In this document: piece after piece, positions 32,190-39,368 of the stretch | Numbering within the stretch: the first letter of the stretch is position 1 | Layout: each line of letters begins with the position of its first letter | Source of the DNA: an uncultured Gammaproteobacteria bacterium | GTDB lineage: Bacteria > Patescibacteriota > Microgenomatia > CAYFQP01 | NCBI GenBank assembly: GCA_964345375.1 | Contig: CAYFQP010000003.1 | Coordinates: 8,875-72,874, forward strand | Direction of reading: 5' to 3' | DNA length: 64,000 nt | Position numbers and translations under genes: made by a program | The notes under the pieces: model-generated | Databases searched by the model: none | What the model was told of the DNA's origin: nothing | What the model saw: the letters and a program-made list of their open reading frames with translations, nothing else

Positions 32190-32270
32190 GATTTTGGAAG
32201 ACAATTAAATCAGCCCCATTGCTTTTTTTGCTTCTCGAAGTGTTTTCTTAGCAATCTTAGAGTAATATTC
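32190..32270 (-). repeat. diverged (~85% identity) duplicate of the trpS 3' end plus 3' flank (gene remnant)
   Basis: Encodes EYYSKIAKKTLREAKKAMGLI* vs trpS C-terminus YCSKIAKETLREAKKAMGLI*; matches 33278-33360. Confidence 0.7.
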
Positions 32271-32721
32271 AGCCCAAAATTTCTAGAGTCGCATCTAAAA
32301 ATTTCTTCGCTCCCTCGACTGCTTGTTTAGCTCCTTTCGCTGAATAGATACTTTCGTAATTAGCCGCTTCTCTTAAGCCCATCGCTTCGTCGAAATAATC
32401 GAGCATCCCAGAATCAAGTAATTTTTCTTTGACAAACAACTCTTTAATCGCTACCCCCAGACAATAATGGCCTCTTTCGCGATAGCCCCGTGAGTAAAGA
32501 AGAGCCCTAGCTGAATGGAAAAGAGAATAATAACCGGCGATGGTTGCATATTTAAAGTTTTTACTTCTCAAGAAATTGTTAGCGTTTTTTAAATCCCCTT
32601 TAGCAGCTTTAAGTTCAACCCTCATTTTATTCCTGGCCTTGGGAAACTTGATAATTTTTCTATTTTTCAAGCAATTTTCAAAATCTTTACTCATGTTGCT
32701 CCTCCCAAAGCACTTTACCAT
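32269..32721 (-). CDS. HEPN domain protein (toxin-like component of HEPN-MNT pair)
   Basis: R-x4-H HEPN motif (RERGHY), helical 150-aa protein overlapping MNT gene. Confidence 0.7.
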   Translation of the reverse strand: MVKCFGRSNMSKDFENCLKNRKIIKFPKARNKMRVELKAAKGDLKNANNFLRSKNFKYATIAGYYSLFHSARALLYSRGYRERGHYCLGVAIKELFVKEKLLDSGMLDYFDEAMGLREAANYESIYSAKGAKQAVEGAKKFLDATLEILG

Positions 32722-33232
32722 TGTTTATCTCTTCGTAAAAGACTGGATCTTTCTTCTTAAGTTCCATTAACTCTAGAAAGTTTTTAATCACTGGTTGAAT
32801 TTTTTGACCTATTTTGCTTTCTTTAATCATCTGCTGGACTTGTCTTTTCTCATTAGTGAGAATAAAGAGATCGAAGTCACTCTCGGCTGAATCTTTTCCC
32901 TGAGCGGCACTACCAAAAAGAATAACCTTCTGACTAACTTTCTGAAGTTTAGTAAGGAGAGGTCTTAACAATTCAATGGTGCGGACAACCTTCATTTGAG
33001 AAACCACGGGATCGTTTTGATCTAAAAAATAAACACTCAGGTTCCCCACCTTCACTTTCTCTATCTCCCTGTCAGCCACCTTTTTTTCTAGTATCTGATG
33101 ACAGGTAGAGATACTCGCACCTGAAGTTTGAGCAATTTGAGAAAGATACATCTTTTCACCCCCCACATTGTCTAAAAGAACATTCATTATCTTTTTTTCT
33201 GACCGCATGTTTCTTTTCATAGTTACATCCAC
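32687..33232 (-). CDS. minimal nucleotidyltransferase (MNT) with N-terminal wHTH (antitoxin-like partner of HEPN)
   Basis: LFGSAAQGKDSAESDFDLFILT (GS-x9-DxD), N-terminal HTH-like extension. Confidence 0.75.
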   Translation of the reverse strand: MDVTMKRNMRSEKKIMNVLLDNVGGEKMYLSQIAQTSGASISTCHQILEKKVADREIEKVKVGNLSVYFLDQNDPVVSQMKVVRTIELLRPLLTKLQKVSQKVILFGSAAQGKDSAESDFDLFILTNEKRQVQQMIKESKIGQKIQPVIKNFLELMELKKKDPVFYEEINNGKVLWEEQHE

Positions 33233-34279: not shown

Positions 34280-34283
34280 TCTG

Positions 34284-34354
34284 CAGGGGCGGAGGGAATC
34301 GAACCCCCGATTAGTGTTTTGGAGACACTCGGTATACCACTTACCTACGCCCCT
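34284..34354 (-). tRNA. tRNA-Trp (anticodon CCA)
   Basis: Cloverleaf: acceptor AGGGGCG/CGCCCCT, anticodon loop CUCCAAA, T-loop TTCGATT; CCA not encoded. Confidence 0.8.
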
Positions 34355-34514: not shown

Positions 34515-34516
34515 GT

Positions 34517-34587
34517 GGCAGGGGTGGGAGTTGAACCCACGACCACTTGTTTATGAATCAAGCGCTCTACCGCTGAGCTACCCTGCC
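34517..34587 (-). tRNA. tRNA-Met elongator type (anticodon CAT; could alternatively be tRNA-Ile2 with lysidine)
   Basis: Cloverleaf with D-loop AGCGGTA, anticodon loop TTCATAA, fully paired G1-C72. Confidence 0.7.
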
Positions 34588-34660
34588 TGGTTGCGGGGCC
34601 AGGAGTTGAACCTGGTCTGTGAGATTATGAGCCTCACGTGCTACCCTACACTACCCCGCT
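34588..34660 (-). tRNA. initiator tRNA-fMet (anticodon CAT)
   Basis: Anticodon loop CUCAUAA; 3' end CCCCGCAACCA identical to E. coli tRNAfMet; position 1 (A) unpaired with A72. Confidence 0.65.
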
Positions 34661-35093: not shown

Positions 35094-36002
35094 TTGACAA
35101 CTATCCCCTTCAATGATATTATAGACCCCATCATGGCAGGCGAATTAACCTCTTTTTCTCTTGCTCGAGACAAATTCATTAACCACCTTAAGAATGAAAA
35201 TCGGTCAATCTCCACCATTTTAGCATACGGCAAAGATGTCGAACAGCTGGCCGAATTTCTTAACCAAAAGAAAATCACCCAAGTCACCTCAGTTCAACCA
35301 GAACACATTGAAACTTTTAAAAAAGAGCTTAATAAGAAAGGCTATACGGCCAAGTCCGTCTCCCGAAAACTTAATTCCATCAAAACCTTCTATCGCTTTC
35401 TTAAAAGTGAAGGAGTGGTTGAAAACGACCCGGCCGCCTCAGTCAGCCATCCTAAGTATGAGGTTAAACCTCCTCGAATTCTTTCTAAAATGGAATACCG
35501 GGCTCTTCGCGACGCCTGCCGAGACGATCTCCGCATCGCCACCATTGTTGAGTTAATGCTTCAGACAGGCATCAGAATCGGCGAGGTTTCTCGCCTAGAG
35601 TTAGAGGATATTAAGAACGATGAGCTAGTAATCAGGGCCTATCAATCTCAACCAAACCGAACTCTTCCCTTAAATAAAGCCGCCAAAAGTTCCCTTGACC
35701 GCTATCTTCAAGAGAGACCAAAAACAAGAACTAAATCAGTCTTTGTGACAAAAACTGGTCGGCCTTTACTTGTCCGTAATATTCGAACAGCAATTGACCG
35801 CTATTTTCGAATTGCCGGGATTGAAGATGCTAAAGTCAATGATCTCCGTAATACCTGGATTGCTCATCATCTCAAAGCCGGGACCTCGGTTGTTATCCTC
35901 TCCAAATTAGCTGGCCACAAACGACTTTCGACGACCGAAAAATACCTTCAATTCGCTAAAGAAAAGCCTGAAGGAAAGAAAATCAAACTCGAAGAACTCT
36001 GA
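35094..36002 (+). CDS. tyrosine-type site-specific recombinase (XerC/XerD-like integrase)
   Basis: N-terminal SAM-like core-binding domain, catalytic region with R...HxxR...Y (AHHLKAGTS...LAGHKRLSTTEKY). Confidence 0.75.
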   Translation: MTTIPFNDIIDPIMAGELTSFSLARDKFINHLKNENRSISTILAYGKDVEQLAEFLNQKKITQVTSVQPEHIETFKKELNKKGYTAKSVSRKLNSIKTFYRFLKSEGVVENDPAASVSHPKYEVKPPRILSKMEYRALRDACRDDLRIATIVELMLQTGIRIGEVSRLELEDIKNDELVIRAYQSQPNRTLPLNKAAKSSLDRYLQERPKTRTKSVFVTKTGRPLLVRNIRTAIDRYFRIAGIEDAKVNDLRNTWIAHHLKAGTSVVILSKLAGHKRLSTTEKYLQFAKEKPEGKKIKLEEL

Positions 36003-36881
36003 TCATTGGACTTCGTTTCCGGAAGATCTTTGAAACTGCCCCAAAACTTCCCCAAAATCATATCCATATCTTTCTTCAGCAATTACCTGAAATTTTTCCA
36101 GATCTTCCTCAGATAGTCTTCCAAAAATGGCTCGGAATGAAGAACTAATTTCCTGTTCTACTCTTTCCCTCAACTCAAATTGTCTAAAGTTCTGATTTGT
36201 GACTAAGAAGCGCATATACTCACCAAAGTATTTAGGAAGAAGATGAATCTTAGGACTCTTTAAATAATAATCCAAGTGGTCCGCATATTCGCCAACATTA
36301 CAGCTCAAATCAGCGCACTTAACGGCAAGCGTCTCTTCTTCTTGGCTGATGGATTGGTAATACTTCTCTGTTCTTCCCGAATAAGTCCCCGAGGGAGTTT
36401 CTCGATTCAACCTAGCCAAAAGAGAAATCATCCGATCCGCGTCAATTCCTTGATAATCATGACTATTTTCTCTAAGATAACTTCTTAATTCTTCTTCTGT
36501 CATATGCTTATCTTCTATAAGATCGTGCCAGAGAGCCAGCAGAATGGGTGTTGGCTCTTCGATACCAAACTCTCTTGCTTTTGAAGCAACACTGGTTAGG
36601 TGATAGCCATAAGGGACTCCCTTTTCAATTGGATAAACCTGATCCTTGTGTTTTTCTATGGCTAAGAAAAATCCTTTTAAAATTACTCCTCTCTGTTGCT
36701 CAGGTAAAGATTGGACACTATCCAGAAACCCCCTATATATTTTTGCTACTTTTTCATTTTTAGTTTGCTCTCTTAATGTGGCCAGCGCTCTTTCTTCTTG
36801 AAGTTCTGGAGGAAGATATTCCTCCCATTTAATCTCTTCTATCTTTGAAGGTAATTCGGCTATCTCTATTCCTTCTTCCAT
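36003..36881 (-). CDS. HD-domain phosphohydrolase (RelA/SpoT-type (p)ppGpp hydrolase-like)
   Basis: GYHLTSVA...ILLALWHDLIEDKHM matches HD motif of alarmone hydrolases. Confidence 0.55.
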   Translation of the reverse strand: MEEGIEIAELPSKIEEIKWEEYLPPELQEERALATLREQTKNEKVAKIYRGFLDSVQSLPEQQRGVILKGFFLAIEKHKDQVYPIEKGVPYGYHLTSVASKAREFGIEEPTPILLALWHDLIEDKHMTEEELRSYLRENSHDYQGIDADRMISLLARLNRETPSGTYSGRTEKYYQSISQEEETLAVKCADLSCNVGEYADHLDYYLKSPKIHLLPKYFGEYMRFLVTNQNFRQFELRERVEQEISSSFRAIFGRLSEEDLEKFQVIAEERYGYDFGEVLGQFQRSSGNEVQ

Positions 36882-36911
36882 CGATCAATTCCAATATAAG
36901 TTATAAGAAAG

Positions 36912-36983
36912 TGGGCCCGGAAGGAGTCGAACCTTCGTCTGGACTTTATAAGAATCCCATTCTCACCGTTGAACTACGGGCCC
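36912..36983 (-). tRNA. tRNA-Ile with anticodon UAU
   Basis: Acceptor GGGCCCG/CGGGCCC, anticodon stem GGATT/AGTCC, loop CTTATAA (34-36 = TAT), T-loop TTCGACT. Confidence 0.65.
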
Positions 36984-37022
36984 AACTGTATTATATCAGA
37001 ATTCAGCCTCAATTGTTAGTCA

Positions 37023-39368
37023 TTAAAGCCTGGCCCGACGGGCGATTTCATTCTCCACTTCTTGTCGAGGAGCACCGTATTTCAACCGCGACATCTCCTT
37101 AATAATCTCGGCTACTCTTTCGCTTGCCTGAGCTTCTTCCTTTTTAAGGTCTTTAGTCGTATCCAAGGAAAAAGGCGTCACTGGCTGGCCTTCAACCACG
37201 GTCTTAACATAAGCATGGAAGCGCTCAATATTCAATAAGTCTGGTTCAGAGAAAGTCGGGCTGAATTCATGTTGGAGAAAAGAGGCATCAGCCACCCCTA
37301 CTTGGAAAGCAACCACGGTGCCGACATTGCCGAAAACCGCATTTTTAACCTCTTCTTCAACCTGACCAATAAATTGATTAGCAACTGTTAAATTAAGATG
37401 GTACTTCCGCGCCTCAGAAAGAATGGTGGCAAAATCAGGGGTAGCAAAATTCTGAAACTCATCAACATAGAGATAAAAGTCCCGGCGTTGTTTCTCGGGA
37501 ACATCGGTTCGGCTCATAGCCGCCATTAGAATCTTGGGAACTAAGACTAGACCTAAAAAGTTTGAATTCTCCTCTCCCAATTTACCTTTGGCGAGATTGA
37601 TAATCAAAATTTTACCTTCATCCATAACTTTTCGGAAATCAAAAGCTGACTCTGACTGGCCAATGATATTCCGCATGGTTTTATTGGTAACAAACCGGCC
37701 GAATTTAGAAACAGTGTAATCTAAAACCTCAGATTTATGGAAATCAGCTGTCTGGGCAATCTGGTCGGTCCAGTAGCGTTTGACCATTTGGTCAGTTACT
37801 TTAGGCAATAAGGCTTTAACAAAAGATGAATCTGTTAACGCCCGGACAACCTCGACAAAAGTATTGCCTGGTTCAGACATTACTGTCAGCATCGCATTCC
37901 GAATGGCGTGCTCAAAACGAGGGCCAATAATTCCGGTTTTATAAGGGTCATAGAGCTTGTACATCAAATTGATAATTGCCGTGGTGACAAAATGTTTCTC
38001 GTCTTCATTCCTTGCTTCTAGCAAATTCAGTCCCATTGGTCTTTCTGTATCTGAGGGATCAAAATAAATCACTTCTTCGGCTCTCTCGGGAGGAATGTAA
38101 GCCAATAGCTCTTCGGCTAAATCATGAGGGTCAATTAAACAAACTCCTTTCCCAGCCTTAAGGTCTTGAAGAATCATCGTCTTCATTAATTCCGTCTTCC
38201 CGGTTCCTGTTTTACCAATAATATAAACATGGCGGAGTCTGTCTTTATCAGTCAGGTGAACACTTCTTTCCACGCCTCGATAAGTACTTCGGCCAGCAAA
38301 TAAGCCAGTGGTCGCAATTTCAGCTGGTGCGGGGGCAGCTTTAGCCGCTAACCAATAAATATGAGGAGTTTCAACAGTTTTATTAGGCAGATGAAAAATG
38401 GTCGCCAATTCTTCAGAATTAAGAATTGTCTGGTTTCCAAAGAGTCTAATCATTGGTTGATAACGATAAATAAAATCATTCATAAAAGCGATCTTAAATC
38501 TGATTTTTTTACTCGAAAAACTATTATGACCTGAAGAAAATTGCTCAAAGGCAGATTTGATATTGCTCAAATGGGCTTTAGCTGATTCTTGAGTATTCGA
38601 GCAAACAACAATTCTGACTGTTGTTTCAAAGCCAGGTTTAGAACATTTGTTTTCAATTGCTTCTAGAGTCTTAGCATCAACCTTATACTTAGCTTTTTCC
38701 GGATCAGCCTCTTCTTTCTTTGTCTTGGTAACAAAACTTTTTCCGGCTGAACGCCACTTTTTTCCAGCCGGACTAATTAAAATCTGAATTGCTGCTCCTT
38801 CTCCCTCCTGCATTTTGGCTAGGGCGGCAGTAATCGAAGAAAGAGGGTCAGTCGGCAATTCCCGGTAGACCTTAATCGGATAAAATGGAGCCTGTTTAAG
38901 ACCCAAACTGGCAAAGGCGACTTTGCCTTCCTTGGAAAAAATATTGTATTCTTTAACTTCTTTAATTTCTGCCTCAGGATAGGCACCGTTGATTTGTTTC
39001 TCGATCAAATCACGGAGTCTGCGGGGACAAGAAACATAGAAACGGATGTCTTCAGGTAAAGCAACAATTTCAAAGGTAAAGTGGTCCTGGGCTTTAAGAA
39101 AGGAAAGCTTGCCACCCTTTTTAATGGCGTACAAGCTGGCAAACATTTGTTCGGCAACATCAATTTTAATTTCATTATCTCGAGGAAGAGCTAGTTGTAA
39201 AAGGACAAAGTCAAGAGATCTCTTTTCTCTGCCGCGATAGTATTTAAAAAAAATAAAAAAGAGATAGCCTAGACCAACTAAAACTAGACCAGTTATTATC
39301 AGAACGACAACCAGGATTATCGTCAACTGAAAAAGATAATTAAAATCAGGTAGTGGGTTCATGACCAA
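37023..39368 (-). CDS. membrane-anchored P-loop ATPase, type IV secretion coupling-protein-like (VirD4/TraG/TraD or HerA/DUF87 family)
   Basis: N-terminal TM helix, Walker A IIGKTGTGKTE, Walker B LYVDEFQNF. Confidence 0.5.
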   Translation of the reverse strand: MVMNPLPDFNYLFQLTIILVVVLIITGLVLVGLGYLFFIFFKYYRGREKRSLDFVLLQLALPRDNEIKIDVAEQMFASLYAIKKGGKLSFLKAQDHFTFEIVALPEDIRFYVSCPRRLRDLIEKQINGAYPEAEIKEVKEYNIFSKEGKVAFASLGLKQAPFYPIKVYRELPTDPLSSITAALAKMQEGEGAAIQILISPAGKKWRSAGKSFVTKTKKEEADPEKAKYKVDAKTLEAIENKCSKPGFETTVRIVVCSNTQESAKAHLSNIKSAFEQFSSGHNSFSSKKIRFKIAFMNDFIYRYQPMIRLFGNQTILNSEELATIFHLPNKTVETPHIYWLAAKAAPAPAEIATTGLFAGRSTYRGVERSVHLTDKDRLRHVYIIGKTGTGKTELMKTMILQDLKAGKGVCLIDPHDLAEELLAYIPPERAEEVIYFDPSDTERPMGLNLLEARNEDEKHFVTTAIINLMYKLYDPYKTGIIGPRFEHAIRNAMLTVMSEPGNTFVEVVRALTDSSFVKALLPKVTDQMVKRYWTDQIAQTADFHKSEVLDYTVSKFGRFVTNKTMRNIIGQSESAFDFRKVMDEGKILIINLAKGKLGEENSNFLGLVLVPKILMAAMSRTDVPEKQRRDFYLYVDEFQNFATPDFATILSEARKYHLNLTVANQFIGQVEEEVKNAVFGNVGTVVAFQVGVADASFLQHEFSPTFSEPDLLNIERFHAYVKTVVEGQPVTPFSLDTTKDLKKEEAQASERVAEIIKEMSRLKYGAPRQEVENEIARRARL

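Follow-up and report, generated by a model that had tools for sequence, protein, structure and literature searches.

How is the isoleucine codon AUA read in the bacterium whose DNA is analysed here, and does the tRNA gene that raises this question belong to its lineage or come from elsewhere? The stretch examined (64 kb, hereafter the window) contains a tRNA-Ile gene with the anticodon UAU; the reading of AUA canonically falls to tRNA-Ile2(CAU) in conjunction with the lysidine enzyme TilS. Papers published in 2025-26 still treat bacterial tRNA-Ile(UAU) as 'rare cases', with tilS present in about 98% of annotated bacterial genomes. Nine tilS-less species belonging to three clades have been described, and metagenomes contained 371 tDNA-Ile(TAT) sequences that were left without assignment (Taniguchi et al. 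2013, PMC3575796). In Mycoplasma mobile, TilS is replaced by a tRNA-Ile2(UAU) with unmodified U34, an IleRS carrying Arg865 and a discriminating ribosome, and the tilS-less Bifidobacterium and Neorickettsia combine tRNA-Ile(UAU) with a eukaryote-type IleRS; the tRNA-Ile(UAU) of eukaryotes has pseudouridine at positions 34 and 36 (PMC3575796). A literature search linking Patescibacteria, CPR, Parcubacteria or Microgenomates with lysidine, tilS or UAU returned nothing relevant.

The coordinates given in the initial annotation proved exact, and Rfam and ARAGORN supply the strand that it had omitted (Table 1). In the window ARAGORN reports a tRNA-Trp(CCA), two tRNAs with CAU anticodons and a tRNA-Ile(tat), four in total and each on the minus strand; it places the tRNA-Ile at 36911-36983. 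The Rfam model RF00005 covers the gene from end to end with 66.3 bits (E = 3e-12; gathering score 29) and no non-canonical pairs, a score far above chance expectation. The 72-nt gene is GGGCCCGUAGUUCAACGGUGAGAAUGGGAUUCUUAUAAAGUCCAGACGAAGGUUCGACUCCUUCCGGGCCCA, and its RNA divides into GGGCCCG UA GUUC AACGGUGA GAAU G GGAUU CUUAUAA AGUCC AGAC GAAGG UUCGACU CCUUC CGGGCCC A; CCA is not encoded. The canonical cloverleaf is also the minimum-free-energy fold, and the UAU anticodon and loop register CUUAUAA that had been annotated are upheld by ARAGORN, Rfam and the fold alike, as expected of an AUA decoder of the UAU type. Beside its 7-nt anticodon loop the tRNA has A37, A38, discriminator A73 and the pairs G3-C70, C4-G69, C5-G68 and U12-A23, a combination that would suit isoleucine identity. 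C4-G69 and U12-A23 are members of the identity set of E. coli IleRS. C29-G41 is an identity pair for the same enzyme; position 29-41 of the window tRNA is A-U.

Table 1. Features around the tRNA-Ile(UAU) gene, in window coordinates
Feature	Coordinates	Strand	Evidence and remarks
tRNA-Trp(CCA)	34283-34354	-	ARAGORN
Elongator tRNA-Met(CAU)	34516..34587	-	ARAGORN (34515-34587), Rfam; C3-G70, C11-G24/U12-A23
Initiator-like tRNA-fMet(CAU)	34591..34660	-	ARAGORN (34592-34659), Rfam; xGCGGGG/CCCCGCA, A1xA72 mismatch, C3-G70
XerC/D-like tyrosine recombinase	35094..36002	+	Pfam; NCBIfam XerD/XerC, 156 bits; synteny
292-aa protein, weak SpoT/RelA-like HD motif	36003..36881	-	Variable slot between tRNA-Ile(UAU) and xer
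Second CTTATAA (anticodon-loop heptamer)	36901..36907	-	5 nt past tRNA-Ile(UAU) 3' end
tRNA-Ile(UAU)	36912..36983	-	ARAGORN; Rfam; cloverleaf is minimum-free-energy fold
Promoter-like site	36990..37019	-	Consensus scan, 10/12 matches plus TG
VirD4/TraD-like coupling-protein ATPase, DUF8128 type	37023..39368	-	Pfam, NCBIfam; conserved upstream neighbour of tRNA-Ile(UAU)

The 39-nt gap between the stop codon of the VirD4-like gene and the tRNA holds the promoter-like site, with a -35 element CTAACA, an 18-nt spacer and a TG-extended -10 element TATAAT that ends 7 nt before the 5' end of the tRNA; its function as a promoter is a prediction. Under a loose definition and with no shuffled control, a -10-like hexamer (TANWWT) occurs at most 22 nt upstream in 29/45 tRNA-Ile(UAU) genes. 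The heptamer of the anticodon loop, CTTATAA, has just eight copies in the 64 kb on both strands, two of which sit 45 nt apart here, and the second copy may represent the core site, or else the scar, of a recombination event.

Forty-five tRNA-Ile(UAU) genes, 44 of them distinct, were assembled from the window, six genome loci and 38 metagenome loci, most of them directly following the VirD4-like gene. Every one of the 45 encodes the anticodon as TAT, for which reason membership of the canonical, lysidine-dependent tRNA-Ile2 family was rejected for the window gene. Among the 44 distinct sequences, positions 32-37 (C32-U33-U34-A35-U36-A37) and A73 are invariant and the stems vary freely; 99.5% of the 924 stem cells are standard pairs and 20/21 stem pairs show compensatory changes on both sides, values that no slid register and none of 500 shuffles approached. 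The 3-70 pair is G-C or A-U in 43/44, 4-69 is C-G in 30/44 and 12-23 is U-A in 38/44. G-C or A-U at 3-70 marks tRNA-Ile, whereas C3-G70 marks Met and fMet (Silva et al. 2006, PMC1635315). Two loci (L084:3739-3777, L086:4030-4102) possess a variant tRNA-Ile(UAU) with the T-loop AUCGUCA instead of UUCGAAU, in which A54 and U58 are swapped.

This pattern of conservation and change indicates a genuine UAU tRNA maintained by selection. A pseudo-tRNA, or a tRNA of other identity, such as one serving an AUA codon reassigned to Met or acting outside translation, seems to us scarcely credible: tRNA-like pseudogenes and fragments do occur at the same locus in relatives and otherwise nothing specific speaks for it, but the cloverleaf is perfect with strong covariation, and the acceptor and discriminator features are those of Ile. 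Codon usage bears on the same point. The 48 ORFs of the window contain 165 AUA codons, 9.6 per 1000 codons and 13% of Ile codons; across the window and 33 related loci with tRNA-Ile(UAU) the median is 14.6 per 1000 (range 1.9-37). In orthologues from six relatives, AUA codons of the window face Ile in 45% of cases, Val in 21%, Leu in 18% and Met in 2%, a profile that resembles that of AUU/AUC and differs from that of AUG. AUA is an isoleucine sense codon in this genome, as its alignment behaviour indicates, and its reassignment to Met was rejected. The usage statistics proposed with the initial annotation show AUA in use, and the alignments show it in use as isoleucine.

If AUA is read by tRNA-Ile(UAU), the question becomes whether the canonical system exists beside it. 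The two CAU tRNAs noted in the initial annotation are real, one an elongator tRNA-Met and the other initiator-like, and both are marked as Met or fMet rather than Ile2 by their C3-G70 pair (the rule of PMC1635315). Across the window and 110 related loci (1.35 Mb), 41 CAU tRNAs fall into two classes, one initiator-like with the acceptor stem xGCGGGG/CCCCGCA-A and one of elongators, in which position 3 is C or U; a tRNA of the Ile2 type (G3/A3) is not among the 41. The acceptor stem of the window tRNA-fMet matches that of the E. coli initiator. Certain peculiarities of these genes may be recorded. In the window initiator-like tRNA, position 1, which in relatives is C, U or A (U1-A72 would pair), is mismatched, U11-A24 stands in place of the initiator-specific A11-U24, and three consecutive G-C pairs are absent from the anticodon stem; the initiator tRNA of two more distant loci (L090, L097) is closer to the canonical form. 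A variant elongator tRNA-Met with an aberrant 5' region (GGCAGGGAGUAGGCUGGUGCCUUGG...), having A for U8 and an unusual D arm, occurs at L002:4-76, L004:4127-4199 and L008:9877-9949.

TilS was absent from the same DNA. Searches by tblastn with E. coli TilS found none in the window and the 110 loci (the loci amounting to 1.29 Mb, 1.35 Mb with the window), nor did a profile of the E. coli, Geobacillus and Aquifex proteins find any among 6098 six-frame ORFs, even at E = 10. Pfam detected neither tilS nor ileS among about 50 window ORFs, and ileS was likewise missing from the related loci in a tblastn search with E. coli IleRS, and from the window. A database search with the TilS profile, not directed at CPR, returned only Aquifex, enterobacterial and Bacillus relatives of the seed sequences. 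The classical site of tilS upstream of ftsH is without TilS and holds trpS and a small variable ORF; the ORF between trpS and ftsH, in the classical tilS/hpt place, is a GNAT protein, AbiEii or a nucleotidyltransferase and HEPN pair. Loss of tilS from the genome to which the window belongs is likely.

Published counts for complete genomes extend this comparison. A 2026 study of tRNA introns in Patescibacteria (PMC13011429) gives in its Table S2 the tRNA counts per amino acid of 95 complete genomes, and these counts separate CAU from non-CAU tRNAs because ARAGORN labels every CAU tRNA as Met. Pattern B is the signature expected if tRNA-Ile(UAU) had replaced tRNA-Ile2(CAU), and its frequency by class is given in Table 2. 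We infer that the second Ile tRNA of pattern-B genomes is UAU; the table is without anticodons, and the identification is backed by the 45 loci. UAU, TilS and lysidine find no mention in PMC13011429. The description of UAU as rare in the initial annotation stands for classical bacteria; within Patescibacteria the arrangement appears to be common, the matching count pattern being present in 40/95 complete genomes.

Table 2. Ile and CAU tRNA count patterns in complete Patescibacteria genomes, from PMC13011429 Table S2. Pattern B, at least two non-CAU Ile tRNAs and at most two CAU tRNAs; pattern A, one Ile and at least three CAU tRNAs
Class	Pattern B	Pattern A	Neither
Microgenomatia	12/12	0/12	
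Dojkabacteria	7/7	0/7	
Paceibacteria	14/20	5/20	
ABY1	2/4	0/4	
Gracilibacteria	2/5	3/5	
Doudnabacteria, UBA1384, WWE3	1/1 each	0	
Saccharimonadia	0/36	34/36	
JAEDAM01	0/7	7/7	
Kazan-3B-28	0/1	1/1	
All 95 genomes	40	50	5

These data also weigh on the possibility that tilS and tRNA-Ile2(CAU) lie elsewhere in the genome and that tRNA-Ile(UAU) merely supplements the reading of AUA. Some bacteria do hold both tRNA-Ile(UAU) and tilS (Taniguchi 2013, PMC3575796), a coexistence proposed as a transitional state in Lactobacillus casei, Cyanothece and Ferrimonas (PMC3575796), and two Ile with three CAU tRNAs are found in 2/4 ABY1 and 2/36 Saccharimonadia complete genomes (PMC13011429 Table S2); the examined part of the present genome, moreover, amounts to 64 kb. 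Yet all 12 complete Microgenomatia genomes have at most two CAU tRNAs, the 1.35 Mb of window and loci yielded neither an Ile2-type tRNA among the 41 with CAU nor TilS, and a UAU gene so deep and near-universal, with an invariant loop, does not resemble a dispensable duplicate. We consider such redundancy unlikely, and the CAU classes, the TilS search and the tRNA counts together point to what the initial annotation had proposed, that AUA is decoded through UAU without tRNA-Ile2(CAU).

The DNA of the window is chromosomal and comes from a Microgenomates-group member of the Patescibacteria/CPR that is close to Ca. Shapirobacteria. Its ORFs are those of a cellular bacterial chromosome, including FtsH, TrpRS, DivIC, an XerC/D-like recombinase, a class II RNR, two PBP1, ATP-dependent DNA ligase, RecF, Fpg, GAPDH/PGK/TIM, IscS/NifU and DUF5667. 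Relatives of its TrpRS come from Patescibacteria MAGs only, the named homologues with 74-75% identity belonging to Ca. Shapirobacteria and to the Microgenomates group. Exact-match look-ups of p292 and of the window TrpRS gave no record; an identical nitroreductase is shared with a single 7-kb Logan contig, which stops short of the tRNA. GC skew is negative in all 2-kb bins of positions 1-64000 and nearly all genes lie on the minus strand, in agreement with the strand disparity and one-sided GC skew described for Microgenomates genomes (PMC7143001). Many public MAGs of the clade (L002-L009, L011, L012) bear the title 'uncultured Gammaproteobacteria bacterium', a mislabelling, since both their gene content and their homologues are those of Patescibacteria/Microgenomates.

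Around the tRNA, gene order is strongly conserved. Six GTDB species representatives (L003-L008), whose TrpRS is 69-83% identical, have tRNA-Ile(UAU) directly after the VirD4-like orthologue, in the order RNR - p130 - VirD4-like - tRNA-Ile(UAU) - [variable slot] - Xer - DivIC - tRNA-fMet - tRNA-Met - tRNA-Trp - TrpRS - [small variable ORF] - FtsH - 5'-3' exonuclease - GT - Fpg - RecF. When metagenomes were scanned with a VirD4-like protein alignment as query, 80 loci emerged (41-86% identity). In 38 of them tRNA-Ile(UAU) lies downstream of the VirD4-like gene at a distance of some hundreds to a few thousand bases, an association that reaches down to about 47-51% identity. Where VirD4-like identity is at least 58% and at least 2.5 kb of downstream sequence is available, 24/29 loci have the tRNA. 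It is missing downstream in five loci with ample sequence and two shorter ones (L074, L100), in agreement with Rfam; L034, L074 and L100 are among the relatives without tRNA-Ile(UAU) at the VirD4-like position. In Ca. Shapirobacteria CG07_land_8_20_14_0_80_39_12, a locus additional to the 45 genes, tRNA-Ile(UAU) occupies the same position.

Two slots in this arrangement vary in content. Between tRNA-Ile(UAU) and xer the window has the SpoT-like HD protein (36003-36881), and elsewhere there is MgsA/RarA, GNAT with peptide deformylase, HTH or nothing (other content at L006:7189-8382, L008:1890-8094 and L113:6079-8168). Between trpS and ftsH the window has the nucleotidyltransferase and HEPN pair (32269-33232, minus strand), close relatives a GNAT protein and others an AbiEii-like toxin (variable slot loci L003:6001-6573, L012:4046-4690, L029:788-1435), and TrpRS adjoins FtsH directly in L006, L008 and L113. 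Several of the core proteins are themselves enlarged in relatives: the RNR at L113:1-2759 carries an intein with a LAGLIDADG domain, as does probably the 1126-aa form at L007:28-3408, FtsH is expanded by an insertion to 1089 aa at L009:1430-4699, and some TrpRS homologues of the clade (P0189, P0228; 480-497 aa) carry a fused tRNA-editing domain of the YbaK/ProX type (PF04073).

Since tRNA-Ile(UAU) holds the same place within a conserved housekeeping synteny and no viral contig matched when such contigs were scanned for tRNAs of its type, its position indicates that the gene is native to the chromosome and conserved there, rather than recently imported. The suggestion that it had arrived with foreign DNA drew on an HD hydrolase/integrase block on one side and a VirD4-like ATPase on the other. 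The ATPase was corroborated by Pfam, NCBIfam and synteny; the 'integrase' is indeed an XerC/D-like recombinase but, found at the same position in all relatives, is no sign of foreign DNA; the 'HD hydrolase' comes down to a weak SpoT-like HD match (E = 7e-5); and the arrival itself is contradicted by chromosomal synteny across many relatives. Three related candidates were rejected: the window as a phage or island, in view of the core synteny and cellular chromosome genes; assignment of the tRNA to the phage- or island-borne accessory class, in view of the conserved core synteny and the lack of matching viral contigs; and the 30-nt direct repeat 35065-35094/36991-37020 as an att pair, being a chance likeness of a ribosome-binding site to the promoter region.

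The locus has nevertheless been subject to turnover in relatives. Halves of tRNA-Ile were sought in the related loci by profile search followed by sequence inspection, and in several relatives fragments split in the anticodon loop adjoin an intact tRNA-Ile(UAU) gene, with 5' halves upstream (L003:2752-2907, L004:2159-2276, L070:4578-4691) or 3' halves downstream of it (L037, 4333-4586; L062:4940-5045). Two loci (L043:12424-12610, L084:3602-3777) contain a complete tRNA-Ile(UAU) inside the anticodon loop of another, flanked by a complementary leader and trailer. The insertion point in L084 is exactly between A35 and U36. The nested tRNAs in general sit at about position 35/36 of a host gene with the same anticodon, the outer halves of which are still perfectly complementary; when the two outer halves of a host tRNA-Ile(UAU) are joined in silico, they give a perfect cloverleaf. 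In the predicted fold of each whole unit one cloverleaf encloses another (z = -3.2 and -2.6 for L043 and L084). The same architecture recurs at L037:6116-6296 with tRNA-Met(CAU) in tRNA-Met(CAU). A literature search turned up no earlier account of one tRNA nested within another. In Patescibacteria, tRNA-Asn and tRNA-Asp are known to carry group I introns at position 35/36; the nested inserts differ in being just about 100-130 nt and mainly a tRNA. Candidates for the mechanism of insertion are a recombinase-mediated cassette, a small inverted-repeat element and an intron. The second CTTATAA is the only possible trace of nesting or insertion in the window.

In L004 a 34-nt 5' remnant, identical at 34/34 positions to the 5' half of the window tRNA-Ile(UAU), precedes a different intact tRNA-Ile(UAU), so a gene of the window type has been displaced in that lineage. 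Displacement of resident tRNA-Ile(UAU) genes by other copies likewise explains why tRNA similarity is at odds with TrpRS identity: the window and L008 share nearly the same tRNA-Ile(UAU) at 69% TrpRS identity, whereas those of the window and L003/L004 are very different at 82-83%. The phylogeny of this tRNA, a check suggested in the initial annotation, is discordant with TrpRS identity.

An accessory tRNA carried by a mobile element (phage, ICE or island) beside an integrase and a conjugation-type ATPase has several circumstances in its favour, among them these two neighbours, the variable cargo slot between tRNA-Ile(UAU) and xer, the duplicated CTTATAA, the half-tRNA remnants and nested copies that reveal replacement by incoming tRNA-Ile(UAU) copies, and the discordant tRNA tree. 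We nonetheless judge it very improbable. Recombinase, ATPase and tRNA keep a constant order amid RNR, DivIC, TrpRS, FtsH and RecF in dozens of relatives, viral matches are nil, and the evidence amounts at most to turnover within the clade; because the disrupted sites in relatives are tRNA-Ile(UAU) genes themselves, the UAU function is native to the lineage.

We conclude with fair assurance that the window contains a functional, vertically inherited Microgenomatia tRNA-Ile(UAU) gene, most likely the sole decoder of AUA, which has replaced tRNA-Ile2(CAU) and TilS. With a genuine UAU tRNA at the same spot in dozens of relatives, this Microgenomatia group probably reads AUA without the lysidine enzyme. 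The gene would be transcribed from its own extended -10 promoter or by read-through from the VirD4-like gene, and the transcript would be trimmed and receive CCA post-transcriptionally. Charging with isoleucine, to which the Ile-type features A73, A37/A38, G3-C70, C4-G69 and U12-A23 would contribute, presumably involves an IleRS that accepts U34. In translation, U34 would pair with the third-position A of AUA, with AUU/AUC left to tRNA-Ile(GAU) and AUG to the pair of CAU tRNAs close by. If no other tRNA decodes AUA, tRNA-Ile(UAU) would represent a solution of the Mycoplasma mobile type.

The resemblance to M. mobile extends to a genomic UAU tRNA-Ile, a small genome and AUA read as Ile (PMC3575796; PMC1635315), with no Ile2-type CAU tRNA seen among the 41 of the window and loci and tilS missing from its classical place by ftsH. 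M. mobile is, however, a single species, whereas the UAU feature here is common to a large and deep uncultivated clade, the Microgenomatia, and by tRNA counts to several other classes of Patescibacteria. The probable use of tRNA-Ile(UAU) without lysidine at the level of a lineage recalls Bifidobacterium and Neorickettsia. A suppressor of a tilS deletion in Bacillus subtilis, tRNA-Ile1 G34U (Kohrer et al. 2014, PMC3919564), demonstrates that a UAU tRNA-Ile can replace the lysidine system in a bacterium; Fabret reportedly described it in 2011. It is a laboratory mutant derived from tRNA-Ile(GAU), whereas the window gene is natural and of an ancient family. With the canonical tRNA-Ile2(CAU)/TilS system the window tRNA shares its AUA task and G3-C70, C4-G69 and C5-G68, which are typical of tRNA-Ile(CAU) genes (PMC1635315); no modification of C34 is needed or possible because UAU is already in the DNA. 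Archaea without TiaS and eukaryotes also read AUA with a U34 tRNA-Ile (PMC3575796), but the context of the window is bacterial (FtsH, DivIC, PBP1 and a bacterial initiator acceptor stem).

The finding is thus apparently a very large new group that uses an already known UAU strategy. A broader proposition, which we hold to be evenly poised, is that whole classes of Patescibacteria abandoned lysidine for a UAU tRNA and that, in this clade, tRNA-Ile(UAU) and tRNA-Met(CAU) genes serve at once as recipients and as payload of a process that inserts a complete replacement tRNA gene into the anticodon loop of the resident one, at about position 35/36, so that one tRNA comes to be nested in another. 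By tRNA counts, the classes concerned may be Microgenomatia, Dojkabacteria, most Paceibacteria and others, which make up about 40% of the complete genomes. If this is true, TilS-independent decoding of AUA would be a major, ancient bacterial strategy instead of a few curiosities, and could explain part of the unassigned metagenomic tDNA-Ile(TAT) reported in 2013. Such genomes would be misjudged wherever annotation or the assessment of genome completeness takes tilS and three CAU tRNAs for granted. Furthermore, if the radiation routinely uses UAU, TilS would be no universal bacterial essential and no universal antibacterial target, and the clade would offer dozens of natural variants in which to ask what keeps a U34 tRNA from reading AUG and by what means IleRS recognises such a tRNA.
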